Assembly: GCA_025464625.1 (NCBI GenBank)
Contig: JAOAUZ010000005.1
Location: forward strand, 203-64,202
Source: Rickettsiales bacterium
GTDB taxonomy: Bacteria; Pseudomonadota; Alphaproteobacteria; Rickettsiales; SXRF01
Direction: 5' to 3'
Length of the DNA stretch: 64,000 bases
The notes under the pieces were generated by a model, which worked only from the letters and a program-made list of their open reading frames with translations, was not told the DNA's origin and searched no databases. The position numbers and the translations under genes are program-made. This document shows, piece after piece, positions 3,750 to 62,449 of the stretch (the first letter of the stretch is position 1; each line of letters begins with the position of its first letter).

Positions 3750-4100
3750 ATGATTAAAGACGCCAAAATGTCTGCAGCTAATAATGGTGAGGGGCAAGTT
3801 GTCAGAAATGACGGTTTGTTACTAGCGGAACCAGAGGTGAAAACCAAACGTCCGCCCTATTTTAAAGTTGTGTTGCTGAATGACGACTATACGCCTATGG
3901 ATTTTGTGGTCTTTATACTTAAAGGCATATTTCATAGGAATCATGAGGAAGCAGTCAGCATCATGCTTGAAATACACCAAAAAGGCGAGGGTGTTTGCGG
4001 GGTCTACACACGGGATGTAGCGGAAACCAAAGCAGAGGAAGCAACTATAGTTGCTCGTCGCAAGGAATATCCGCTGCAATGTCGGGTGGAGAAAGAATAA
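3750..4100 (+). CDS. clpS: ATP-dependent Clp protease adaptor ClpS
   Basis: 'PPYFKVVLLNDDYTPMDFVVFIL..FH' is the ClpS core and the gene is directly upstream of clpA. Start uncertain: TTG 3738, ATG 3750 or ATG 3768. Confidence 0.9.
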   Translation: MIKDAKMSAANNGEGQVVRNDGLLLAEPEVKTKRPPYFKVVLLNDDYTPMDFVVFILKGIFHRNHEEAVSIMLEIHQKGEGVCGVYTRDVAETKAEEATIVARRKEYPLQCRVEKE

Positions 4101-4138
4101 AAAAATGACCCAATTACTGCAACCGACGGGAGAACGCC

Positions 4139-6466
4139 ATGTTGTCAAAGAATCTGGAAATCAGTCTGCACCGCGCACTGGCCATTGCTAAAAAATATCG
4201 CCATGAATATGCAACCTTAGAGCATTTGCTCTATGCGCTAATAGATGATCCAGATGCTATATCAGTAATGCGTGGTTGCGGTATCAACCTTGTTGATATT
4301 AAGAAAAATCTTGGTGATTTTTTAGAAACAGAATTAAGTTCATTAGTGGTTGATGAGGTAGAAGAAGCCCGTCCTACTGCTGGTTTTCAGCGAGTTATTC
4401 ACCGTGCGGCAATTCATGTGCAATCTGCTGGTAAAAATGAAGTTACAGGCGCGAATGTGTTGGTTGCGCTATTCTCAGAACGTGACAGCCATGCAGTTTT
4501 CTTTTTACAGGAACAGGAATTATCACGCCTTGACGTAGTGAATTATATTTCACACGGCGTAGTTAAATTTCAAGACACTAATAAAATCACTGAATGGAAA
4601 CGCGGATTTGATGCAGATGAAGCTGCCGATTCTTTGGAACGCCCACAGGCTGCTAAGGAAAAAGATAAAGAAAAATCTGATGCGCTTGCTCTTTATACCA
4701 TCAATCTAAATAAAAAAGCTGAAGCTGGAAAAACTGATATTCTAGTTGGTCGTGAAGAAGAGGTGGATCGTACAGTGCAGGTTCTAGCGCGTCGTACCAA
4801 AAACAATCCGCTTTATGTTGGTGAGGCAGGTGTTGGTAAAACAGCTATTGCTGAGGGGCTTGCTCTGCGTATCGTGCGTGGTGAAGTTCCGCAAGTGTTG
4901 CGCAATGCTATCATCTTCTCGCTAGACATGGGTTCGCTGCTGGCTGGAACGCGTTATCGTGGTGACTTTGAAGAGCGCATGAAAGCTGTTATCAAGGAAA
5001 TCGAAAAAATTCCTAATTCAATTTTGTTTATTGATGAAATTCATACAATAATTGGTGCTGGTTCAACCTCTGGCGGTGCGCTTGATGCTTGTAACCTTCT
5101 GAAACCTGCTCTTGCTCGCGGTGGTTTCCGCTGCATTGGTTCAACCACTTATAAAGAATATAAAAGCAGCATAGAAAAAGATCGCGCTCTGGCTCGTCGT
5201 TTCCAGAAAATCGATGTGGTTGAGCCTACGGTAGAAAATTCTATAAAGATTCTACGCGGTTTGAAACCATACTATGAAGATCATCATGGCGTTCGGTATA
5301 CTAATGGTGCGATTAAAGCCGCTGTGGAGTTATCTGCACGTTACATCAATGATAGAAAACTTCCTGATAAAGCAATTGACGTTTTGGATGAAGCGGGCGC
5401 AGCGCAAATGCTACTTCCAGAAGCGAAACGCAAACGCACTATCACTCATCGTGAGATTGAGGATATCGTGGCTAAAATCGCGCGTATGCCAGCTAAAACA
5501 GTTACTATGGATGATGCTGAAGTTCTGCGTAATCTTGATAAAAACCTGAAACTGGTAGTTTTCGGTCAGGATAACGCAATTGATACTCTTGCTTCGGCTA
5601 TAAAAATGTCGCGTGCAGGACTTCGTGAAGAAGAAAAACCAATCGGTAATTATCTATTCACTGGTCCTACTGGCGTGGGTAAAACCGAAGTGGCGCAGCA
5701 GCTTGCTGTGGCTATGGGCATGGAGCTTCTGCGTTTTGATATGTCTGAATATATGGAAAAACATGCGGTTTCGCGTTTAATCGGTTCGCCTCCCGGATAT
5801 GTTGGTTTTGATCAGGGCGGTCTGCTTACTGATGCTGTCGATAAATCTCCATATTGTGTGATTTTACTTGATGAAATCGAAAAAGCGCACCCAGATGTTT
5901 ATAACATCCTGCTACAAGTTATGGATTATGGTCGCTTAACTGATAATAACGGGAAGATGATAAATTTCCGCAATACCATCATCATCATGACCAGCAATGC
6001 TGGTGCATCTGACGCTGCCCGCGCTCCTGTTGGCTTTATGAAAACTGGTCGTGACGGTGAAGAAAAAGAAGCGGTTATCCGTGCCTTTACACCAGAATTC
6101 CGCAATCGCCTTGATGCAATTATTCCTTTTGCGCACCTAAATCCTGAAGTGGTGGCACATGTGGTAAACAAATTTATCTTCCGCTTAGAATCACAGCTTG
6201 CAGATCGCAACGTGACCATTAATTTGGATAACAATGCTCGTCAGTGGCTTATAGAACGTGGTTATGAGCGTGCTAATGGCGCACGTCCGATGGCACGTCT
6301 TATTGCAGAGAAAATCAAAAAACCGCTGGCGGATGAAGTGCTATTCGGCAAACTCAGCAAGGGTGGAACTGTGAAAGTCGGTGTTGAAAATGGTGAACTG
6401 GCGTTTAGCTTCAGTAAGGCTATGGGCGCTGGCCGTCAATCTGCCGATGAAGAATTGGTGTCTTAA
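4139..6466 (+). CDS. clpA: ATP-dependent Clp protease ATP-binding subunit ClpA
   Basis: 775 aa with two AAA+ modules ([15 protein letters not shown]; [15 protein letters not shown]) and a Clp N-domain. Confidence 0.95.
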
Positions 6467-6938: not shown

Positions 6939-7006
6939 TGTCATACCGCACTTGGGTTTTCGATAGTGAGATCAAAATGGTTGGTTTTGCCCAGATGCTG
7001 GGTGAC
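6939..7006. repeat. possible degenerate GTCAT-type palindromic element just after the rpsP stop
   Basis: tgtcat...(cact/agtg stem)..gatc ... cccag-atg-ctggg-tgac. This shares only the outer architecture with the clear copies. Confidence 0.25.
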
Positions 7007-10563: not shown

Positions 10564-10959
10564 ATGTCTAAAATTACCCGTCCGCTTTCTCCACACCTTT
10601 CTATTTATCGTCCGCAAATCACATCGTTCCTCTCTATAATTCATCGCATGACTGGTGTTGCTTTATATGCTGGGCTTGCGTTGCTGATTGTTTTTTTATG
10701 GGTGGTGGCATATTCACCAGCAAATTATGATGAGCTACATAAGTGTTTATCGTCATTTTGGGGTAGGTTGTTTTTATTTGGTTGGACGTTTGCTCTCTAT
10801 TTTCATCTATTTAACGGTATTCGCCATTTATTCTGGGACATAGGCAAAGGTTTTAGTCTTTCTTCAGTGAATGTGAGTGGTTGGCTTGTTGTTGTACTTA
10901 CGTTTATTGCCAGCTTTATTAGCTGGATTGCAGCTTATCATAATGCAGGAGTTTTATAA
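10564..10959 (+). CDS. sdhC: succinate dehydrogenase cytochrome b556 subunit
   Basis: 'RPLSPHLSIYRPQITS.LSI.HR.TG' is the SdhC signature; 131 aa with 3 predicted TM segments. Confidence 0.92.
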   Translation: MSKITRPLSPHLSIYRPQITSFLSIIHRMTGVALYAGLALLIVFLWVVAYSPANYDELHKCLSSFWGRLFLFGWTFALYFHLFNGIRHLFWDIGKGFSLSSVNVSGWLVVVLTFIASFISWIAAYHNAGVL

Positions 10960-10961
10960 TC

Positions 10962-11381
10962 ATGAAAAAAGAAGATTCTTCTGATCTCCGCAGTAAATTG
11001 AGCAAAGCGCGCGGGCTTGGTTCTGCCAAACATGGTGTTTCCCATTGGTGGCTGCAACGAGTTACTGCCATTGCGATGATTCCATTGTTTATTTGGTTTG
11101 TAACTGCGATTGTTTCGGTGATGATTTCTCCTGAGCATAAACAGGTTGCTAATTGGTTTGTTTCACCTGTAAACGCACTGCTGCTGGTGTTGCTTGTTTG
11201 CGCTATGTTCTATCATGCTAAACTTGGTTTGCAGGTGGTGATTGAAGATTATATCAAATGCCCATGTACAAAATACGGCTTGCTTATCGGCAATAATTTT
11301 TTCTGTATTGCGGGTGCTGTTGTTTGTATCTTGGCGGTTTTTAAACTGCATTTGTTCATTCAGTTTTTTAAAATCGGATAA
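10962..11381 (+). CDS. sdhD: succinate dehydrogenase hydrophobic membrane anchor subunit
   Basis: 'GSAKHGVSHWWLQRVTAIA' is the SdhD motif; position is between sdhC and sdhA. Confidence 0.9.
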   Translation: MKKEDSSDLRSKLSKARGLGSAKHGVSHWWLQRVTAIAMIPLFIWFVTAIVSVMISPEHKQVANWFVSPVNALLLVLLVCAMFYHAKLGLQVVIEDYIKCPCTKYGLLIGNNFFCIAGAVVCILAVFKLHLFIQFFKIG

Positions 11382-11408
11382 TTTAGTTTTTTTTAAGAAG
11401 AGTATCAT

Positions 11409-13199
11409 ATGACCTTAGCCTATAAAATTATAGATCATTATCATGATGTTGTTGTCGTTGGTGCTGGTGGAGCTGGGCTTCGCGCTACTTTCGGCATGGC
11501 AGCAGCAGGGCTTAATACTGCCTGCGTTACTAAGGTGTTTCCAACTCGCAGCCACACTGTAGCAGCGCAGGGTGGGATTTCTGCGGCGCTGGGCAATATG
11601 GGGCAGGATGACTGGCGTTGGCACATGTATGATACCATCAAAGGCTCTGATTGGTTGGGTGATCAGGATGCTATCGAGTATATGTGTAAAAATGCTATGG
11701 AAGCGGTTGTTGAACTTGAGCATTATGGTGTTCCGTTTTCACGCACTCCTGATGGCAAAATTTATCAGCGTCCGTTTGGCGGAATGACCACAGATTATGG
11801 CAAAGGTACGGCACAACGTACTTGTGCAGCGGCGGACAGAACGGGTCATGCAATTTTGCATACGCTATACACGCAGGCACTGCGCCATAAAGCGCAATTT
11901 TTTGTTGAATATTTTGCCACTGATTTACTCATGGATGATGATGGCTCTTGTCGTGGCGTAATTGCGTGGAATCTTGATGACGGCACTATCCACCGTTTCA
12001 ACGCGCATATTACTGTGCTGGCTACTGGCGGTTACGGGCGCACATATTTCTCCTGCACTTCAGCGCATACCTGCACTGGTGATGGCGGTGGAATGGTGGC
12101 GCGGGCAGGGCTTCCGCTTCAGGATATGGAATTTGTACAATTTCACCCAACAGGAATCTATGGCGCGGGCTGCCTGATTACCGAGGGTGCGCGCGGTGAA
12201 GGTGGCTATCTGGTTAATTCTGAAGGTGAACGTTTTATGGAACGTTACGCGCCATCGGCGAAGGATTTGGCTTCGCGCGATGTGGTATCGCGGGCGATGA
12301 CGATGGAGATTCGTGCTGGTCGCGGTGTTGGACCACTTAAAGATCATATTTATCTGCATCTCGATCATCTAGATCCAAAAGTTTTACATGAGCGTTTACC
12401 GGGGATTTCTGATACTGCAAAAATTTTCGCTGGTGTGGATGTTACCAAGCAGCCGATACCAGTTCTTCCGACTGTGCATTATAATATGGGTGGAATTCCT
12501 ACCAATTATCACACTGAAGTTGTTACCCTTAAAAACGGTAATCCTGATAGCGTGGTGCAGGGGCTTATGGCGATTGGTGAGGCTGGCTGCGTTTCTGTGC
12601 ACGGTGCGAATCGTCTTGGTTCAAATTCACTGCTTGACCTTGTGGTGTTTGGCAGAGCAGCGGCAATTCGTGCAGCGGAGCTGATAAAATCGGGAATGCG
12701 CCATAAACCAATTAATCAATCTGCGACTGAAAAAGCTTTGGCGCGTTTTGACAAAATTCGTAATGCTAATGGTGGCTTAAAAACTTCTGAAATTCGTCGT
12801 AATATGCAGCGTTCAATGCAAAGCCATGCTGCAGTTTTCCGTGAAGAGCAGGTTCTTAGCGAAGGCGCATCGCAAATGGCAGAAATTTGGAAAAGCTACG
12901 ATCAACTCAAAATTTCTGACCGCACTTTGGTGTGGAATAGTGATTTGGTGGAAGCTTTGGAACTTGATAATCTTCGTAGCCAAGCACTGATAACTATTGC
13001 TAGTGCGCTTAATCGTCAGGAAAGCCGTGGCGGACATGCGCGAGAAGATTTCCCAGAGCGTGATGATAAAAACTGGATGAAGCACACTCTGGCGTGGATT
13101 GATGACAAAGGCAAAGTTGCATTTGACTATCGCCCAGTGCATCTGAATACACTTTCTAACGAGGTGCAGCCAGTGCCACCAAAGGCAAGGGTGTATTAA
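11409..13199 (+). CDS. sdhA: succinate dehydrogenase flavoprotein subunit
   Basis: '[13 protein letters not shown]', '[10 protein letters not shown]' (covalent FAD His) and the '..PKARVY' C-terminus; 596 aa. Confidence 0.96.
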
Positions 13200-13210
13200 A
13201 TACTACTATC

Positions 13211-13296
13211 TGTCATCCCCGCGCAGGCGGGGGATCTAGAGTCCCAATCTCGGTCAGTGTATTTTGCCCTAGATCCCCGAGTAAATCGGGGATGAC
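13211..13296. repeat. GTCAT double-hairpin palindromic element, copy A (GC-stem subtype)
   Basis: tgtcat-ccccgc-gcag-gcgggg-gatctag ... ctagat-ccccg-agtaaat-cgggg-atgac. Lies 12 bp after the sdhA stop, between convergent genes. Confidence 0.8.
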
Positions 13297-15055: not shown

Positions 15056-15691
15056 TTAATACGCAACTGGCACTGGGTCAAGCGAACGCCACAAATACCA
15101 TGTGGCAACGGAGCGATAGGGTTTCCATCTTTGGCTTAACTCAAATATTTCTGCTAGAGTCATTTTTTGTTCATTATTATAATGGCGGAAAATGGCTTTT
15201 TGTAAGCCAATATCAGCAAGGGGCAGAATATCAGGGCGGGCAAGGTAAAAAATCATGAACATTTCTGCCGTCCAGCGACCAATACCGTTAAGAGATGTAA
15301 GTTCGCTTATTATTTCGTCATCAGATAAATTATTCCAGTTTTTTATATGTGCTTTGTTTTCTATAAAATGTTCGGCAAGACCATGTAGGTAACGCACTTT
15401 TTGCGCAGAAAGACCGCATTCGCGTAAGGCTGTTTCGTTGGTTTTTATTGCGGATTTTGGAGTCACTTCACCAAGCTGATTTTCAAGCCTTTTCCACACC
15501 GTATCAGCAGCTTTCACCGATATTTGTTGCCCGATTATCGAACGCGCCAATGTGTAAAAAGCATCGCCACGCACAGTTAGAATTTCACCATGATAATGAC
15601 TAATTATTTTACCCAATATCTTATCGTTGGTGAGGATGTGCGATTTTGCATCGTTCCAGTAATGTGGGTGCATAAAATTCCTTATTGTCAT
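15056..15691 (-). CDS. DNA-3-methyladenine glycosylase II family (HhH-GPD)
   Basis: HhH 'LNGIGRWTAEMFMIF' followed by 'PDILPLADIGL' (catalytic Asp region). The ATG at 15691 lies inside repeat B; an alternative ATG is at 15673. Confidence 0.8.
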   Translation of the reverse strand: MTIRNFMHPHYWNDAKSHILTNDKILGKIISHYHGEILTVRGDAFYTLARSIIGQQISVKAADTVWKRLENQLGEVTPKSAIKTNETALRECGLSAQKVRYLHGLAEHFIENKAHIKNWNNLSDDEIISELTSLNGIGRWTAEMFMIFYLARPDILPLADIGLQKAIFRHYNNEQKMTLAEIFELSQRWKPYRSVATWYLWRSLDPVPVAY

Positions 15692-15763
15692 TTCGAGTAT
15701 AGCGAGAAATCTTTGCGATTGATTTAATATTGCAAAGATCCCTCGACTAAGCTCGGGATGACA
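15686..15763. repeat. GTCAT double-hairpin palindromic element, copy B (GAG..CGA-loop subtype)
   Basis: tgtc-atttcgag-tatag-cgagaaat-ctttgc / gcaaag-atccctcg-actaag-ctcgggat-gaca. Abuts the pheT stop codon (15764). Confidence 0.85.
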
Positions 15764-18262
15764 TTATTGCCTGAGTATTCCGCCGAAACCTTTGCTGGCA
15801 GATGATATTATCGCATTGCTCACAGATGTAATATCTGCATCGGTTAGTGTGCGTTCGAATGATTGTAGAGTTACTTTCACCGCCACCGATTTTTTGCCAG
15901 TATCAACGCCTTTGCCACTATAAACGTCAAAAATTTCTACGTTGGTTATCAGGTTTTTCTCAGCTTTGTTTATTTCTTTTTCAATGGTTGCAGCTGTTAC
16001 ACTGTCATCAACTATAAACGCGAAATCACGCTCTACAGCTTGATAATCAGAAATTTTTAGTTGTGGTTTTGCTGTGCCTTTGCTGCGTGAAACAGGAATT
16101 GCATCTAAGAAAATTTCAAATGCGGCAACTGCTCCTTCAAGGTTAGGATTGGTAATTTGATTTATAATGTCAGAAGCGTCTATTGTTTTCTCACGAATCT
16201 CTCGCCATTCTATATCAAAATCGTTGCTTGTTTTTGGATGAATTTCACCAAAATAACCAAGTATGGTTTTACCGAGAACAAAAGCCCCGCTGCGGTTTGG
16301 ATGGTAGTAAGAAGGGAGATTTGTAGTGCTTATTTCAAATTTATTTACACCGAGGCTTTCCAGTATCGCGATTGCGTCGGCTTTAGCAGTCAAAGGCAAC
16401 AAAGGAAAAACTTCTGCTTTGATAAAATTCTGTTTATTCAGCTTATATGCGTTACCATACATTTTTATCTTGCGTACGAAACCATCTTCAACAATATTTC
16501 TTTCTGTCCTTATTCCACAAGCAACCATTTTCTGTCCATCAGGCGTGATGTCATGGAATTGCAAACCAACTTCAAAGAGGGAAATATTTTTGAAGTCACG
16601 CGCAGCGTTGCGTTTTGCGGCATCGAGCAAGTTGGGAAGAAGGCTCGGGCGCATAGTATCTAAATCTGCACTGATAGGATTTAGCAGAGTGAGCGCGGGG
16701 TTATTGCCACCAAACACTGCCGCCTGTGCAGCGGGAATGAACGACCATGTTTGCGCTTCCATCATGCCACGCCCAGCAAGTAAACGCTTGGCAAGATGCA
16801 CACGTTTCTGCGATAGGCTTAATATAGCAGGTGTAATCTGTGGATTTTTTGGCAGTGGTGTTGACGGAATATGTTCATAGCCATAAATCCGCAAAACTTC
16901 TTCAACCAAATCTGCTTCACCTTCAATATCAGCGCGCCAAGATGGTGGGGTAACAATTTTATTGTTTATGGTAAAGCCAAGATTTTTTAGAATTTCCAAA
17001 GATTTTTCAGCAGATATATCAACACCACCTAAAGATTTTACACGCTGCGGGTTAAAGCTGATTTCACGTTCCCATTCAGGAGTTTTTCCGCAGGTAACCA
17101 GCTCGCTTGCCTGCCCACCGCAGAGTTCCATAGTCATCGCCACGGCGCGTTTTGCAGCTTCTTCCACAAAAGCAACATCCACGCCGCGCTCAAAGCGATA
17201 GCGCGCATCAGAATCAATCTGCAAAACCCGCCCAGCTTGTGCAACGCTCGCTGGTTCAAACAAAGCAATTTCTAAAAATACATCAGTGGTTGTTTCAGTG
17301 CAGCCAGTTTCGCTGCCACCAATAACGCCACCAATTGCGACTGGTTTTTGCGCGTCAGCAATCACTGTTGTCCCAGTTGGCAGTTCATATTCCTTGCCAT
17401 TTAGAGCAGCTAGTTTTTCACCAGCTTTTGTTTCTCTAACTGTTATATTGCCATTTAATTTTTTAGCATCATAAACATGCAGTGGACGACCGAGATCAAA
17501 AGTAAAATAGTTGGTGATGTCCACTAGTGCGGAGATTGATTTTTGTCCGATTGCTTCCAAGCGTTTTTTTAGCCACTCAGGGCTTTGTCCATTTTTTACA
17601 TTTTTTATATAACAACCAATAAATTGCTCACAGTTTTTAGTTTCTATGGAAACAGAAATTGGCGAAGGAAAACTAGGACTATAATTTATTGTTGGTAACG
17701 GTTTTAATGTTCCTATTCCCGCTGCTGCGAGGTCACGCGCAACCCAACGCACACCAAGGCAATCAGCACGGTTAGGGGTAATGGCGATGTCGATGATTGG
17801 GTCGTTCATGCCCATAACATCAGCGACTTTTGCGCCGATTTTTGCTTCGGGAAGTTCTATAATTCCTTCGCTGCTGGTGGCGAGTCCTAATTCCTCCAGC
17901 GAACAAAGCATGCCATTGCTTTCCACACCGCGTATTTTTGTTTTTTTGATGGTCATGCCATTTGCAGGAATCACCGTTCCTTCTTTGGCGAGGGCAACAT
18001 ATAAACCAGCGCGGGCGTTGGCAGCACCGCATACGATTTGTAATTCACCAGCATCACTTTCAACTTTGCACACTTGCAATTTATCAGCTTCAGGGTGGCG
18101 AGTTGCTTCTAATATTTTAGCAACTGTAAAAGCAGAAAGTGACGCGCCTCTATCTTCAATGCTTTCTAATTCCAGTCCAATCGCCGTCAATTTATCAGTG
18201 ATTTCTTGCAAGGAAGCGGTAGTTTCCAGATGATCCTTTAGCCATGAGAGAGTGAATTTCAT
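15764..18262 (-). CDS. pheT: phenylalanine--tRNA ligase beta subunit
   Basis: 'MKFTLSWLKDHL' N-terminus (start moved to ATG 18262, 1 nt after the pheS stop). B3/4, B5 and FDX-ACB regions are recognisable. Confidence 0.94.
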   Translation of the reverse strand: MKFTLSWLKDHLETTASLQEITDKLTAIGLELESIEDRGASLSAFTVAKILEATRHPEADKLQVCKVESDAGELQIVCGAANARAGLYVALAKEGTVIPANGMTIKKTKIRGVESNGMLCSLEELGLATSSEGIIELPEAKIGAKVADVMGMNDPIIDIAITPNRADCLGVRWVARDLAAAGIGTLKPLPTINYSPSFPSPISVSIETKNCEQFIGCYIKNVKNGQSPEWLKKRLEAIGQKSISALVDITNYFTFDLGRPLHVYDAKKLNGNITVRETKAGEKLAALNGKEYELPTGTTVIADAQKPVAIGGVIGGSETGCTETTTDVFLEIALFEPASVAQAGRVLQIDSDARYRFERGVDVAFVEEAAKRAVAMTMELCGGQASELVTCGKTPEWEREISFNPQRVKSLGGVDISAEKSLEILKNLGFTINNKIVTPPSWRADIEGEADLVEEVLRIYGYEHIPSTPLPKNPQITPAILSLSQKRVHLAKRLLAGRGMMEAQTWSFIPAAQAAVFGGNNPALTLLNPISADLDTMRPSLLPNLLDAAKRNAARDFKNISLFEVGLQFHDITPDGQKMVACGIRTERNIVEDGFVRKIKMYGNAYKLNKQNFIKAEVFPLLPLTAKADAIAILESLGVNKFEISTTNLPSYYHPNRSGAFVLGKTILGYFGEIHPKTSNDFDIEWREIREKTIDASDIINQITNPNLEGAVAAFEIFLDAIPVSRSKGTAKPQLKISDYQAVERDFAFIVDDSVTAATIEKEINKAEKNLITNVEIFDVYSGKGVDTGKKSVAVKVTLQSFERTLTDADITSVSNAIISSASKGFGGILRQ

Positions 18263-18263
18263 A

Positions 18264-19325
18264 TTACAACCCACTCACTAAGTTGGGAATATGCAGTGGA
18301 TCGAAACCATAATGTTGTAACCAGCGTGCGTCGGATTCAAAAAATGTGCGCAGGTCTGGGATGCCGTATTTGAGCATGGCGAGGCGTTCTATACCCATGC
18401 CGAAAGCAAAGCCCTGCCATTCATTCGGGTCAATATTGCAATTTTTTAGAACATTAGGATGCACCATACCGCATCCGCCAATTTCCAACCAATCACTGCC
18501 TGCGCCAATCTTCAAACTTTCCTTGCTGCGGGCGCAGCCAATGTCAATTTCGGCTGATGGTTCGGTGAATGGAAAAAAGCTGGGGCGGAAACGTACAGGT
18601 ACATTTTCCAACTCAAAAAACACGCGCAGGAATTCGCTGATGCAGCCACGCAGATGTCCCATATTTATTTCTTTATCAATCACCAAACCTTCAATCTGAT
18701 GGAACATTGGCGTGTGGGTTAGGTCTGAGTCACAGCGATAAGTGCTGCCCATGGCGATGAAACGAAAAGGTGGTTTACCAGCGCGCATGGTGCGGATTTG
18801 CACAGGGGAGGTGTGAGTACGCAGCACGGTTTTATTATCGCCTTTGCCGTGTAGATAAAATGTATCATGCATCTGGCGGGCAGGGTGTGATTCTGGAATA
18901 TTCAAGGCAGTAAAATTATGCTCGTCATCTTCAATATCAGGACCATCAGCAACGTTAAAACCAAGGTCGGCAAATATTGCAGTTATTTCTTCTGTAACTT
19001 GAGTGATGGGGTGAATTTTCCCGCGTGACTGCGAATCTATAGGCAGGGTTACATCTAGTTTTTCTGTAACTAGGCGAGCGTTTAATTCAACATCCGCAAG
19101 AGTAGATTTTTTTTCTTCGAGAGCGTTTGTAATTTGCTCTTTTATTTGGTTGAGTGCTGCACCTAAAGTTTTGCGTTCTTCTGGTGAGGCTTGCCCGAGT
19201 GATTTTAGTGCATCGGTTAGCTTACCTTTTTTGCCGAGTAAAGAAACGCGAAGCTCCTCTAACGCGCTTGATGTTTCACAAGCAACGATAGAGGAGAGGG
19301 CTTCGTTTAATAAGTTTTCGGTCAT
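18264..19325 (-). CDS. pheS: phenylalanine--tRNA ligase alpha subunit
   Basis: 'HPARQMHDTFY', 'FRPSFFPFTEPS', 'GFAFGMGIERLAMLKYGI'; 353 aa. Confidence 0.96.
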   Translation of the reverse strand: MTENLLNEALSSIVACETSSALEELRVSLLGKKGKLTDALKSLGQASPEERKTLGAALNQIKEQITNALEEKKSTLADVELNARLVTEKLDVTLPIDSQSRGKIHPITQVTEEITAIFADLGFNVADGPDIEDDEHNFTALNIPESHPARQMHDTFYLHGKGDNKTVLRTHTSPVQIRTMRAGKPPFRFIAMGSTYRCDSDLTHTPMFHQIEGLVIDKEINMGHLRGCISEFLRVFFELENVPVRFRPSFFPFTEPSAEIDIGCARSKESLKIGAGSDWLEIGGCGMVHPNVLKNCNIDPNEWQGFAFGMGIERLAMLKYGIPDLRTFFESDARWLQHYGFDPLHIPNLVSGL

Positions 19326-19345
19326 GTTAGAATGACACTAATAAA

Positions 19346-27813: not shown

Positions 27814-28041
27814 ATGAGTTTTATAGAGAATGGTAATAAAGTTGCACAGTTTATAGCTGATACAGCAGCGTTTTTAGGTGCGTTATTGTACATTTTTTCA
27901 ATTATATTAGCTTTGGTTGGATGTGATGGTATTTGTACAGGAACGGATCTCGATGCTTGGATGCCAGCGTTTTTTTTCTTTCCTATAGGGATGCCACTTG
28001 TTGTCAGGTTAATTAAAAGGCTAAAGTCTAAAATGATATGA
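27814..28041 (+). CDS. small hypothetical membrane protein
   Basis: ATG 27814 is preceded by gagagga. Two hydrophobic segments. The stop overlaps the next start (ATGA). Confidence 0.45.
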   Translation: MSFIENGNKVAQFIADTAAFLGALLYIFSIILALVGCDGICTGTDLDAWMPAFFFFPIGMPLVVRLIKRLKSKMI

Positions 28042-28958
28042 TTTCCGTTACTGGCAACAAGCTCACATTCTCAGGAAAAGACTATCATTGCGCTATTGGA
28101 AAAAATGGTTTTTCTGCTGATAAAAAAGAAGGCGATGGCTGCACACCACTTGGAATTTTTTCACTGCGTGAATTGTGGTATCGCGCGGATAAAATCGAAA
28201 AACCAAAAACTAATTTACCAATAAAAATTATTCATGAAAATGATGGTTGGTGTGATGATGTTTCTTCGTCTGATTATAATAGGCATATTCTTCTCCCTCT
28301 CCCTTTGGGAGAGGGTAGGGGTGAGGGCGATTATGTATATTCTCCACAAGAATTAATAGAATATGCGCGTGCATTAAGAAAGGAATCTACATCTCCAGAA
28401 ATTAAGTTGTGGTCTATATTACGCAACCGTCAGATGAATGGGCTAAAATTTCGTAGGCAGCATCCTGTAGAAAAATATATCGCTGATTTTTATTGTGATG
28501 AATTGCGCCTTATTATTGAATTGGACGGTGAGTCACATTTTACAACTGAAGGAAAAGTTAGTGATGCTGTGCGTAGTAAGTTTCTACAAGAAAAAGGCTA
28601 TAAAATAATTAGGTTTTCTAATGAGGAGATTGGAGAAAGTCTTGAAGCTGTAATACAGAGTATCTACGCCATCACAGAAGAAAAAGCCCTCACCCCTGCC
28701 CTCTCCCAAGGGGAGAGGGAGAAGATACAAATTCCAAGACACGAAAAACTATGGCGTGATGACGATGTTTACGATCTGATTATTCCCATTGGCTATAATG
28801 ATTCGCCAGTTATTTCTGGCAAAGGTAGTGCCATTTTCATACATATTGCCCGTGATAATTATGAACCAACCGAAGGTTGTGTGGCGTTGAAATTACAAGA
28901 TTTACTGGAAATATTGCTGCTGTGTTCAAACGAGACAGTAATTGAGATAAACGACTAG
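28038..28958 (+). CDS. L,D-transpeptidase family protein carrying an in-frame DUF559 endonuclease-domain insertion (residues 85-229)
   Basis: Host parts: 'YHCAIGKNGF..KEGDGCTPLGIF' and 'GSAIFIHIARDNYEPTEGCVAL' (YkuD His/Cys motif). Inserted part: 'ARALRKESTSPEIKLWSILRNRQMNGLKFRRQHPVEKYIADFYCDELRLIIELDGESH'. Confidence 0.8.
   Translation: MISVTGNKLTFSGKDYHCAIGKNGFSADKKEGDGCTPLGIFSLRELWYRADKIEKPKTNLPIKIIHENDGWCDDVSSSDYNRHILLPLPLGEGRGEGDYVYSPQELIEYARALRKESTSPEIKLWSILRNRQMNGLKFRRQHPVEKYIADFYCDELRLIIELDGESHFTTEGKVSDAVRSKFLQEKGYKIIRFSNEEIGESLEAVIQSIYAITEEKALTPALSQGEREKIQIPRHEKLWRDDDVYDLIIPIGYNDSPVISGKGSAIFIHIARDNYEPTEGCVALKLQDLLEILLLCSNETVIEIND
28290..28724 (+). mobile_element. DUF559 (Vsr-like endonuclease) module bounded by 39-bp hairpin-bearing inverted repeats
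   Basis: Left IR 28290-28328 matches the reverse complement of right IR 28686-28724 at 37/39 positions. Each IR contains ccctctccc-NNN-gggagaggg. Total 435 bp. A related ORF-less doublet is at 50269-50354. Confidence 0.65.
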
Positions 28959-41047: not shown

Positions 41048-41121
41048 TGGGGGATCTTCTAATGGTAGGAAAGCGGACTCTGACTCCGTCAATCTAGGTT
41101 CGAGTCCTAGTCCCCCAGCCA
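41048..41121 (+). tRNA. tRNA-Gln (anticodon CUG)
   Basis: Manual cloverleaf: acceptor tggggga/tccccca, D arm ttc-taatggtag-gaa, anticodon arm gcgga-ctCTGac-tccgt, T arm ctagg-ttcgagt-cctag, discriminator g, encoded CCA. 74 nt. Confidence 0.85.
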
Positions 41122-41157
41122 TTCATAAGAGGGCATAAAGCCCTCTTATGAATGGCT
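41117..41157 (+). other. 18-bp perfect hairpin that includes the tRNA 3' end (agccattcataagagggc-ataaa-gccctcttatgaatggct)
   Basis: Read directly from the sequence. No T-run follows, so it is not a canonical intrinsic terminator. Confidence 0.7.
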
Positions 41158-41175
41158 GGGTTATTAGTTTGTGAG

Positions 41176-43765: not shown

Positions 43766-43840
43766 TGTCATTTCGAGTGCAACGAGAAATCTTTGCTTTG
43801 TAAAAACTGAAAAGATACCTCGGCTACGCTCGGTATGACA
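43766..43840. repeat. GTCAT double-hairpin palindromic element, copy C (GAG..CGA-loop subtype)
   Basis: tgtc-atttcgag-tgcaa-cgagaaat-ctttgc ... aaaag-atacctcg-gctacg-ctcggtat-gaca. Lies 10 bp after the M48 stop and upstream of sdhB. Confidence 0.85.
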
Positions 43841-43925: not shown

Positions 43926-44726
43926 ATGGCTGAACTCAGGCTTCCTGCAAATTCTAAGGTTAGAAAAGGCAATACACATAAGGTGTCGGAGGCAGCGAAG
44001 CGTGTCAAGAAATTCAATATCTACCGCTTTAACCCTGAAGATGTGGATGATAAAGGCACACCGAAAAACCCGCGCTTAGACAGCTACGAATTGGATATGG
44101 ATAATTGCGCGCCGATGGTTTTGGATGCGCTGATAAAAATCAAAGATGAGGTTGATTCTACCCTTACTTTCCGCCGTTCCTGCCGTGAGGGGATTTGTGG
44201 TAGCTGTGCTATGAATATTGACGGCACAAACACGCTCGCCTGCATCAAGCCGATTGATGAGGTGAAGGGGGATGTGAATATTTATCCACTGCCACACATG
44301 TCGGTTATTAAAGATTTAGTTCCTGACATGACACATTTTTACGCGCAGTATGAATCGATAAAACCTTGGCTGCAAACTAGCACTCCACAACCTGCCAATC
44401 GTGAACGTCTGCAATCGCCAGAAGATAGGGCAAAGCTGGATGGGCTTTATGAATGTATATTGTGCGCTTGTTGTTCGACCTCCTGCCCAAGCTATTGGTG
44501 GAATTCGGATCGCTATCTTGGGCCTGCAATTTTGCTGCATGCTTATCGCTGGATTATTGACAGTCGCGATGAATTTACAGGCGAGCGTTTGGATGAAGTT
44601 GAAGATCCATTCAAGCTCTATCGTTGCCACACGATTATGAACTGCGCGAAAACCTGCCCTAAGGGTCTTAACCCAGCCAAAGCGATCGCTGAAATTAAAA
44701 AAATGCTGGTGGAGCGGGTGGTATAG
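43926..44726 (+). CDS. sdhB: succinate dehydrogenase iron-sulfur subunit
   Basis: '[19 protein letters not shown]', '[17 protein letters not shown]', '[17 protein letters not shown]'. Confidence 0.96.
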
Positions 44727-50268: not shown

Positions 50269-50354
50269 CTTCTCCCTCTCCCTCTGGGAGAGGGTGGGGT
50301 GAGGGCAGTAAAAAGAAAGCCCTCATCCTAACTTTCTCCCAGAGGGAGAGGGGA
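50269..50354. repeat. ORF-less doublet of the DUF559-element inverted repeats (12-bp spacer)
   Basis: cttctccctctccctctgggagagggtggggtgagggc-agtaaaaagaaa-gccctcatcctaactttctcccagagggagagggga. The left arm nearly equals IR 28290-28328. Confidence 0.75.
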
Positions 50355-50359
50355 CTTGG

Positions 50360-50436
50360 TGTCATCACCGCGCAGGCGGTGATCTCTATTTATTGTTGTG
50401 TTCGACGAAGAGATTCCTGCCTACGCAGGAATGACA
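50360..50436. repeat. GTCAT double-hairpin palindromic element, copy D (GC-stem subtype)
   Basis: tgtcat-caccgc-gcag-gcggtg-atctct ... agagat-tcctgc-ctac-gcagga-atgaca. Confidence 0.8.
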
Positions 50437-51033: not shown

Positions 51034-51124
51034 TGTCATCCTGTGGAACGCGAAGCGTTAGCACAGGATCTTGTGCAGTAACGCTGAGATCCTGCGCTGC
51101 AACCTTGTCGCCCGCAGGATGACA
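51034..51124. repeat. GTCAT double-hairpin palindromic element, copy E (GC-stem subtype, long loops)
   Basis: tgtcat-cctgtg-(16 nt)-cacagg-atc ... gat-cctgcg-(16 nt)-cgcagg-atgaca. Lies 7 bp after the carboxypeptidase stop. Confidence 0.8.
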
Positions 51125-53168: not shown

Positions 53169-53237
53169 TGTCATATTGAGCGCAGCGAAATATCTCTATA
53201 AACTGCAAGGAGATTCTTCGCTACGCTCAGAATGACA
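53169..53237. repeat. GTCAT double-hairpin palindromic element, copy F (GAG..CGA-loop subtype)
   Basis: tgtc-atattgag-cgcag-cgaaatat-ctc ... gag-attcttcg-ctacg-ctcagaat-gaca. Lies 7 bp from the dsbD stop. Confidence 0.85.
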
Positions 53238-62361: not shown

Positions 62362-62449
62362 GTTCATTGCGAGTGGCATAGGCGACAAAGAAATCCATTT
62401 TCAGTGTGTTCTTCTAAGTCTGGATTGCTTCGCTGCCACTCGCAATGAC
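62362..62449. repeat. GTCAT double-hairpin palindromic element, copy G (attgc/gcaat stems)
   Basis: gttcattgcgagtggc...cca ... tggattgcttcgctgccactcgcaatgac. The right arm forms the 3' end of the truncated toxin ORF. Confidence 0.75.

Follow-up and report, generated by a model that had tools for sequence, protein, structure and literature searches.

The closest known counterparts of the repeats considered here are the NTS sequences of Neisseria, in which CGTCATTCCCGCGMAVGCGGGAATCYRG extends the dRS3 repeat (Chenal et al., 2025, Nat Commun 16:2388, PMC11893778). NTS-like Ssn-related motifs (SRMs) flank homologues of ssnA, the gene of a 94-aa single-domain GIY-YIG protein, and consist of a GTC(A/T)Y head immediately 5' of a hairpin-forming palindrome of 20-50 nt that is directly followed by C, for which the published search pattern is HGTCWYN(0-2)YYVSBRHN(0-5)WNVSBRGN(0-2)RNCYNB (PMC11893778). 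SsnA binds the motif solely as single-stranded DNA (ssDNA) and in a single orientation, with cleavage a few nucleotides upstream, RNA and double-stranded DNA (dsDNA) being neither bound nor cut; the C after the palindrome is the most critical base for binding and the three bases before the palindrome are the most critical for cleavage, and altering the palindrome abolished the activity of the Neisseria enzyme even with the hairpin kept (PMC11893778). Binding and cleavage of ssDNA were shown for Neisseria and Wolbachia Ssn enzymes, and the NTS-ssnA-NTS arrangement was likened to an insertion sequence as a hypothesis only, gene-less miniatures not being described (PMC11893778). Here, double-hairpin elements were characterized in a 64,000-nt stretch of a Rickettsiales bacterium genome (GCA_025464625.1, contig JAOAUZ010000005.1, positions 203 to 64,202; hereafter the window). 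These elements are very probably paired SRM-type hairpins, best read as gene-less miniatures of the SRM-ssn-SRM cassette that resemble transposable elements of the miniature inverted-repeat type (MITEs), a reading carried by their anatomy, the covariation of their stems, the identical modules found around GIY-YIG genes and their gain and loss at orthologous sites.

A search for GTCAT...ATGAC pairs in which each end opens a perfect hairpin returned exactly six elements in the window. The clean elements run from TGTCAT to ATGACA, contain two inverted hairpin modules each and span approximately 70-90 bp. Together with the surviving module of a decayed seventh copy, 13 modules were available for comparison with the SRM definition: GTCAT at the 5' side and ATC at the 3' side were invariant in 13/13, as was GTCAT in copies from other phyla, and a perfect stem preceded the ATC in each of the 12 clean-copy modules, the remaining one (at the 62449 end) pairing with a 1-nt bulge. 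The head and the palindrome followed by C are accordingly present as in SRMs, and the invariant positions of the window modules (GTC, AT..AT, and C) are those critical for cleavage and binding by SsnA. The module beginning at 13211 fits the published SRM pattern exactly (0.12 fits expected by chance) and, together with the module at 50360, reads like the Neisseria NTS; the other window modules lie 1-4 substitutions away from the pattern. The family had already been described, under the name NTS/SRM in 2025 and earlier still as dRS3, a matter which an earlier reading of the sequence alone (the original prediction) had left undecided.

Sequences at all coordinates listed in the original prediction read as described there, and six of its seven clear copies proved to be clean double-module elements, the seventh being degenerate. 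The copy at 15686-15763, of a subtype in which GAG..CGA frames the loop (modules 15686-15711, + sense, and 15737-15763, - sense), directly follows the pheT stop codon and precedes an HhH-GPD glycosylase gene. Its closest paralogue is the GAG..CGA copy at 43766-43840 (43766-43791, +; 43814-43840, -), located 9 nt past the stop codon of an M48-like protease gene and upstream of sdhB. A third GAG..CGA element at 53169-53237 (53169-53194, +; 53212-53237, -) lies 6 nt from the dsbD stop codon, and its modules gave the best matches to a cross-phylum covariance model (48 and 44 bits). The element at 13211-13296, between the stop codons of sdhA and a HIT gene, combines an NTS-like module (13211-13236, +, CCCCGC/GCGGGG) with a second module at 13272-13296 (-, CCCCGA/TCGGGG), and the GC-stem (NTS-like) element at 50360-50436 comprises modules 50360-50384 (+, CACCGC/GCGGTG, loop GCAG) and 50412-50436 (-, TCCTGC/GCAGGA, loop GTAG). 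The sixth, at 51034-51124 (51034-51070, +; 51088-51124, -), is situated 6 nt from the stop codon of a DacA-like gene and has extended 16-nt loops with a nested mini-hairpin. Five of the clean copies have a stop codon within 0-12 bp (at ends 13211, 15763, 43766, 51124, and 53237), a count given by the original prediction and confirmed by the open reading frame (ORF) table.

The covariance model, which combined copies from other genomes with four modules of the window copies at 15686, 43766, and 53169, recovered all 12 modules of the six clean copies (E-values of 1e-9 to 0.3, and one of 9). A looser scan for GTCAT followed by a hairpin detected 17 modules in the window compared to 2.5 +/- 1.3 in first-order Markov simulations of its sequence. 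In the decayed copy at 62362-62449, the right module (62423-62449, - sense) forms the hairpin with the 1-nt bulge; at the left end, where the sequence is GTTCAT, the original stem is gone and the covariance model finds no match, and the two ends are mutually complementary over 20 nt. Base pairing, claimed earlier for all 14 modules, consequently holds for 13 of them. A doubtful eighth copy at 6939-7006 was not borne out, as it had no covariance-model match and a DNA folding z-score of -1.3. A probable element remnant was identified at 19321-19337 (-) between rplT and pheS, where TGTCAT and ATGAC are separated by 6 nt and the ATG of the latter is the pheS start codon. As a separate observation, sdhC-sdhD-sdhA (10564-13199) and sdhB (43926-44726) lie approximately 30 kb apart and a hairpin element bounds each block.

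The stems vary in sequence and keep their complementarity. All seven GAG..CGA modules of the window are perfectly complementary with six different stem triplets, which was reached by 0.04% of 3'-arm permutations, and all six GC-stem modules are complementary with six different stems, reached by 0.14% of such permutations; the stem covariation put forward in the original prediction is far beyond chance in these tests. As a MAFFT alignment of the 13 window modules was made without awareness of structure, counts were taken on fixed-length modules and by permutation. The signal was also present in other genomes, retrieved with the pattern TGTCAT-NNN-GAG-N5-6-CGA-NNN-ATC-N25-55-ATGACA, in which the stem triplets were left unconstrained. 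Among the matches listed, these triplets were perfectly complementary in 138/162 modules compared to 31 (maximum 46) with shuffled partners, more than 10 different complementary triplets occurred, and a 69-sequence alignment gave 66 double-change cells at the four variable pairs against 20.9 +/- 3.7, a value attained in none of 500 shuffles and a signal that was lost when the partner column was slid.

Pairing was then assigned by comparing positions that differ between the two modules of an element. Watson-Crick pairs were found within modules in 12/12 cases and between modules in 0/12 cases in the window, and in 46/52 versus 4/52 cases across phyla (among the matches listed), such that conservation of pairing applies to the hairpin within a module and not to a duplex between modules. 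Selection does not act on the fold rather than on primary sequence, as originally proposed, since strong conservation extends to GTC, to the C that follows the stem, to GAG/CGA, and to the loop; the structural argument of the original prediction was otherwise largely correct. In the consensus, the loop is G-C / G-N-A / G-C with G.A and A.G on its flanks, which fits the earlier idea of tandem G.A pairs framing the loop, the same positions being C-G/G-C pairs in the GC-stem subtype. Very high stability is a property of two such DNA motifs, GNA mini-hairpins of the d(GCGAAGC) type and sheared G.A pairs in tandem. A central third hairpin, giving the element a cloverleaf-like form, is weakly supported as a conserved feature, with 2.2 complementary bases beyond ATC/GAT compared to 1.05 in the control.

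The cross-phylum pattern matched at least 120 genome stretches compared to approximately 17 expected by our own estimate. The matches listed included Acidobacteriota, Chloroflexota, Bacteroidota, Gemmatimonadota, Verrucomicrobiota, Clostridia, Nitrospirota, Desulfobacterota, Omnitrophota, and Saccharibacteria, as well as alpha-, beta-, and gammaproteobacteria including metagenome-assembled genomes (MAGs) of Rickettsiales and Coxiellaceae, and the pattern also matched 54 IMG/VR contigs. One listed match (L031, 2671-2755) was in a contig binned as Nanoarchaeota, which crosses domains if the binning is right but could be a binning artefact.

Modules identical to those of the window are linked to GIY-YIG genes. 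In a Chloroflexota MAG (L070) and a Saccharibacteria MAG (L001), two modules enclose a GIY-YIG ORF (PF01541) of 96 and 93 aa, respectively, in the order left module, 10-25 nt, ORF, short spacer, and right module; both proteins are single-domain and have a weak PDB match to 1ZG2 (UPF0213). When metagenome contigs were scanned with these two proteins and a strict module detector requiring perfect stems, 80 loci encoding proteins of 63-75% identity were obtained; 58 of these had GTCAT..ATC modules facing outward on one or both sides, and both sides were occupied in 20. Within 860 kb of fetched loci, 100 tight inverted pairs were counted against two gene-bearing cassettes. These pairs and the six of the window (106 in total) measure 59-124 bp (median 76) around a variable center (median 21 nt), and because their TGTCAT..ATCT ends are identical to those of the SRM-ssn-SRM cassettes, the pairs are read as gene-less MITE-like miniatures of the latter. 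The GAG..CGA and NTS-type subtypes are themselves linked by a mini element in L106, one of whose modules is of the GAG..CGA kind and the other an exact NTS-type module. Tandem arrays were additionally observed in two IMG/VR contigs, with five units in L226 (8545-8970) and four to five in L241 (8923-9303); each unit is an element plus a constant spacer of 10-11 nt with conserved modules and variable centers, resembling the arrays of Neisseria intergenic mosaic elements (NIMEs). The arrays are compatible with nick-induced duplication and do not prove it.

Comparison of the pheT neighborhoods of four relatives (L122-L125, with PheT 80-90% identical) and an outgroup (L009, 63%) revealed filled/empty polymorphism at three or four intergenic sites, the relatives being annotated as Rickettsiales or Alphaproteobacteria MAGs. 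At the pheT/glycosylase junction, the two genes overlap by 4 bp (CAATGAC) in L122-L125, and in the window they are separated by the 78-bp element and approximately 17 nt; the L009 outgroup has an element exactly after the pheT stop codon. Since the nearest relative of the window is empty at this junction, two independent gains are more parsimonious than three precise losses. At HIT/sdhA, the window shares its element with L122, L123, and L124; L125 has none, its convergent genes overlapping there. The rplT/pheS site holds a full element in L122 and L124, a decayed one in L125 and L009 and only the remnant in the window, and a fourth site (at 18680 of L125) is filled in L125 only. A move of the pheT-site copy from the rplT/pheS site was ruled out, as the module subtypes differ. 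Orthologous and paralogous copies differ by compensatory changes: the first stem pair of the right modules is A-T at 43840, C-G at 15763, and G-C in L009, and the pheT-side module has CCC..GGG in the window, GCC..GGC in L009, and ACC..GGT in the paralogue at 43840.

Insertion within a gene was identified in L009, where a mini element at 4082-4143 lies in frame in pheT and adds approximately 20 residues (VIPNAQAEGSKDSSPMARND) that are absent from five orthologues. A mini element of L122 (786-862) is read through as ..SLRAQRSNPEKKDWIATSSTPPRND.. within a called YkuD-like ORF and could represent another insertion in frame or else a gene called too long. The PheT of the window (15764-18274) has a private 24-residue insert (EWREIREKTIDASDIINQITNPNL) with no match to the hairpin model, and it shares with L009 a variable segment that is longer than in the close relatives. 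At the HIT/sdhA copy, the loop of the sdhA-side hairpin is inverted, its sense strand reading GCAG in the window (13211-13236) and CTTGC in L122 (14815-14839) and L123 (5236-5260) with the stem kept, an outcome that a hairpin-mediated loop flip would give.

If the window elements are SRM-type miniatures, the sense strand of a module (T-GTC-AT, stem, loop, stem', AT-C-T) would fold as ssDNA into a hairpin, predicted to have five Watson-Crick pairs, two sheared G.A pairs, and a GNA triloop closed by G-C/C-G in most window modules and an 8-bp GC-rich stem in the others. A small single-domain GIY-YIG nuclease (Ssn) would bind the hairpin by reading its stem and the C just 3' of it and, guided by the GTC head, would cut approximately 3 nt 5' of the motif. 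A cognate Ssn presumably acts or acted on the window copies whenever these become single-stranded, for example during replication, repair, or DNA uptake, and its nicking may drive the spread of the elements. The two ends have their sense hairpins on different strands, and a nick would thus be placed in each strand immediately beyond the element's 5' end on that strand. As DNA joining is beyond a hydrolytic nuclease, the elements would depend on host repair or replication to spread. Filled and empty sites, gene-less miniatures, and tandem arrays together provide comparative evidence for a transposable element based on GIY-YIG alone. We tentatively suggest, at somewhat less than even odds, that the double-hairpin units (60-120 bp) are non-autonomous derivatives of a transposable element whose only gene encodes a ~95-aa GIY-YIG ssDNA nuclease, spread across most bacterial phyla and still active in Rickettsiales-like lineages. 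If so, they would belong to a prokaryotic mobile-element class without an HUH, DDE, or recombinase enzyme, with matches also in MAGs of the Candidate Phyla Radiation and possibly of DPANN and in viral contigs; in the Rickettsiales-like lineages, insertion would occur at gene boundaries and even within essential genes with the reading frame kept.

Several findings weigh against the reading of the window elements as miniatures of an SRM-ssn-SRM cassette. A hydrolytic GIY-YIG nuclease making one cut per strand does not alone explain integration, and the putative assignment of the module-flanked GIY-YIG proteins to Ssn proper (CDD cd10448) rests on Pfam PF01541, size (93-96 aa), and architecture. 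No ssn/GIY-YIG gene was detected in the 64-kb window or in approximately 88 kb of the relatives' loci by tblastn and a profile from the 80 homologues. The strict SRM pattern fits only 1/13 window modules and 2/254 cross-phylum modules (among the matches listed); given that the modules around the GIY-YIG genes of L070 and L001 escape it as well, besides the other 252/254 cross-phylum modules, the published pattern is too narrow to decide membership. Neither a target-site duplication nor a consistent target motif was found, and none was evident at the filled/empty sites; direct repeats of at least 3 nt bordered 6/106 copies compared to 2.8 expected (maximum 9 in shuffles), and the copies had no flanking inverted repeat and no conserved flank beyond T...A. 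Finally, nearest-neighbor DNA folding of whole elements favored a single long hairpin as the minimum-energy form for most copies, 50360-50436 being the only one with the three-hairpin form at its minimum, but the covariation contradicts that long fold.

Among the other explanations, the elements could be relic selfish DNA of the SRM family that decays in the few permissive intergenic positions of a compact genome in which no nuclease now acts. The lack of an ssn gene in the window and in the relatives' loci is as expected of relics, as are the decayed copy at 62362-62449, the remnant at 19321-19337, and the decayed versions in L125 and L009, but relics would not be expected to retain perfect stems and the GTC/ATC signals in 12/12 modules of the six clean copies or to differ between orthologues and paralogues by compensatory pairs. 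The pheT/glycosylase insertion is in addition comparatively recent, being absent from a relative with 90% identical PheT, and the relic explanation is on balance considered unlikely. A role at the RNA level, in which 3' untranslated stem-loops would stop transcription or protect mRNA 3' ends as proposed for repetitive extragenic palindromic (REP) sequences and some MITEs, is favored by the 5/6 clean copies located 0-12 bp after a stop codon, by the stability of the hairpins, and by the symmetry of the element, which yields a hairpin in either transcript direction. Location after stop codons can, however, simply mirror the positions where insertion is tolerated, copies in frame are found within genes as well, the hairpins are not followed by the T run of an intrinsic terminator, and one L125 site has its element between the stop codon and a separate canonical terminator. 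No Rfam family matched either, with nothing at the gathering score in the window and nothing meaningful at E <= 1 in eight loci with consensus copies. The orientation-defining GTC..C signals and the G.A/GNA hairpin are moreover features of a DNA ligand, and as SsnA neither binds nor cuts RNA or dsDNA (PMC11893778), the ssDNA half of the original suggestion of a fold in ssDNA or RNA was retained and an RNA role appears distinctly improbable.

The likeness to REP sequences and bacterial interspersed mosaic elements (BIMEs) noted in the original prediction holds at the level of function but not of the partner enzyme. REP/BIME-type elements mobilized by a RAYT or an IS200/IS605-type Y1 transposase would likewise be short extragenic palindromes in inverted pairs without target-site duplication, and a tetranucleotide-like sequence, G(C/T)AG, is conserved in the elements. 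This GTAG/GCAG sits in the loop, however, and the head is GTCAT instead of GTAG; the only gene found enclosed by modules encodes a GIY-YIG nuclease rather than a RAYT or Y1 transposase. Both ends of IS200/IS605 elements act on one strand, unlike the opposite-strand sense hairpins observed here, and mobilization by such an enzyme is regarded as extremely unlikely. Hardly more credible is a role as dsDNA binding sites of a dimeric regulator or as attachment sites of an IS110-type recombinase; dRS3 serves as such a target for Neisseria filamentous phages. In favor of a dsDNA site are the palindromic form with invariant outer hexamers TGTCAT/ATGACA and the report of dRS3 as the target of a phage recombinase (PMC11893778, introduction), but the stems vary freely so long as they remain paired, which is unexpected for base-specific recognition of dsDNA, and no recombinase or prophage adjoins the window copies. 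Such a role and the origin as SRM-type miniatures could nevertheless exist side by side.

Further identities were excluded more directly. Coxiella QMITE2, an element of 150-190 bp with direct repeats of 7-11 nt (PMC5896051), was considered in view of the GC content and the mention of intracellular bacteria in the original prediction and was ruled out by size, by the direct repeats, and by the flagellar genes and Rickettsiales-like synteny of the window, and the signature sequences of the integron attC site, hammerhead ribozyme, C/D-box k-turn RNA, and dif were absent. Literature searches by repeat sequence or peptide returned nothing relevant, those on COG2827, UPF0213, and YhbQ returned only the Ssn paper as relevant, and GIY-YIG and dRS3 are both absent from a 2024 review of bacterial MITEs.

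Additions to the described system are modest: a new lineage of hosts, a dominant subtype (GAG..CGA), elements that occur as pairs lacking the gene, and direct comparisons that document gain, loss, and insertion in frame. The match provides a name and a partner enzyme for a repeat scattered through genomes and metagenome bins of very diverse kinds, in which it gives rise to numerous spurious small ORFs (encoding, for example, CHPERSEGS or ..ARNDK peptides). The intergenic hairpins of this genome are best read as Ssn-type ssDNA motifs and not as regulatory RNAs, the dominant subtype with its G.A pairs and GNA triloop escapes the published search pattern, and filled/empty sites together with in-frame insertions in close relatives make the question of mobility testable.

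Other repeats were noted in the window. A second, unrelated palindromic repeat at 50274-50352 has perfect 18-nt arms (CCCTCTCCCTCTGGGAGA / TCTCCCAGAGGGAGAGGG) and ends 7 nt to the left of the 50360 element; its 21-nt core, CCCTCTCCC-NNN-GGGAGAGGG, recurs at 28295-28315 and 28699-28719 inside the ORF 28038-28958. A 28-nt inverted repeat at 41107-41167 (89% complementary), the left arm of which overlaps the 3' end of a tRNA gene (41048-41118), may be an integration scar or attachment site.

Compared with the SRM/NTS system, the window elements share the GTCAT head, the palindrome of ~20 nt followed by ATC(Y), the same orientation logic, and a mostly intergenic location, and identical modules flank small single-domain GIY-YIG genes in the SRM-ssn-SRM architecture. 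They differ in that most copies, in the window as across phyla, are of the GAG..CGA subtype, with two G.A mismatches and a GC/GNA/GC tip that fall outside the published pattern, and in forming tight, inverted, gene-less pairs of 59-124 bp, a form not described in PMC11893778. No ssn gene lies within the 64-kb window, and the density of approximately one element per 9 kb would, if genome-wide, amount to a high copy number as reported for symbiont-type bacteria. NIMEs are short repeat units bounded by dRS3 and, like the elements described here, consist of short variable segments between inverted dRS3/NTS-type hairpins and form tandem arrays (as in L226 and L241), but the window copies are single and dispersed with centers of ~6-35 nt. 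REP/BIME-RAYT and IS200/IS605 systems have in common with them ssDNA hairpin repeats that flank a small nuclease gene without target-site duplication, an analogy also drawn by Chenal et al. (PMC11893778), and are set apart by an HUH Y1 transposase in place of a GIY-YIG hydrolase, by the GTAG head, and by the strand arrangement of the sense hairpins. Rickettsia palindromic elements (RPEs) are likewise small palindromes of Rickettsiales that can sit in frame in essential genes, as the L009 pheT copy does, but measure approximately 150 bp (PMC10969869). Bacterial MITEs such as Correia, ERIC, and the QMITE2 of Coxiella match the elements in their terminal inverted repeats, many copies, larger gene-bearing partner, and insertion polymorphism, in contrast to which the elements of the window lack a target-site duplication and have a partner that encodes a nuclease and not a DDE transposase.

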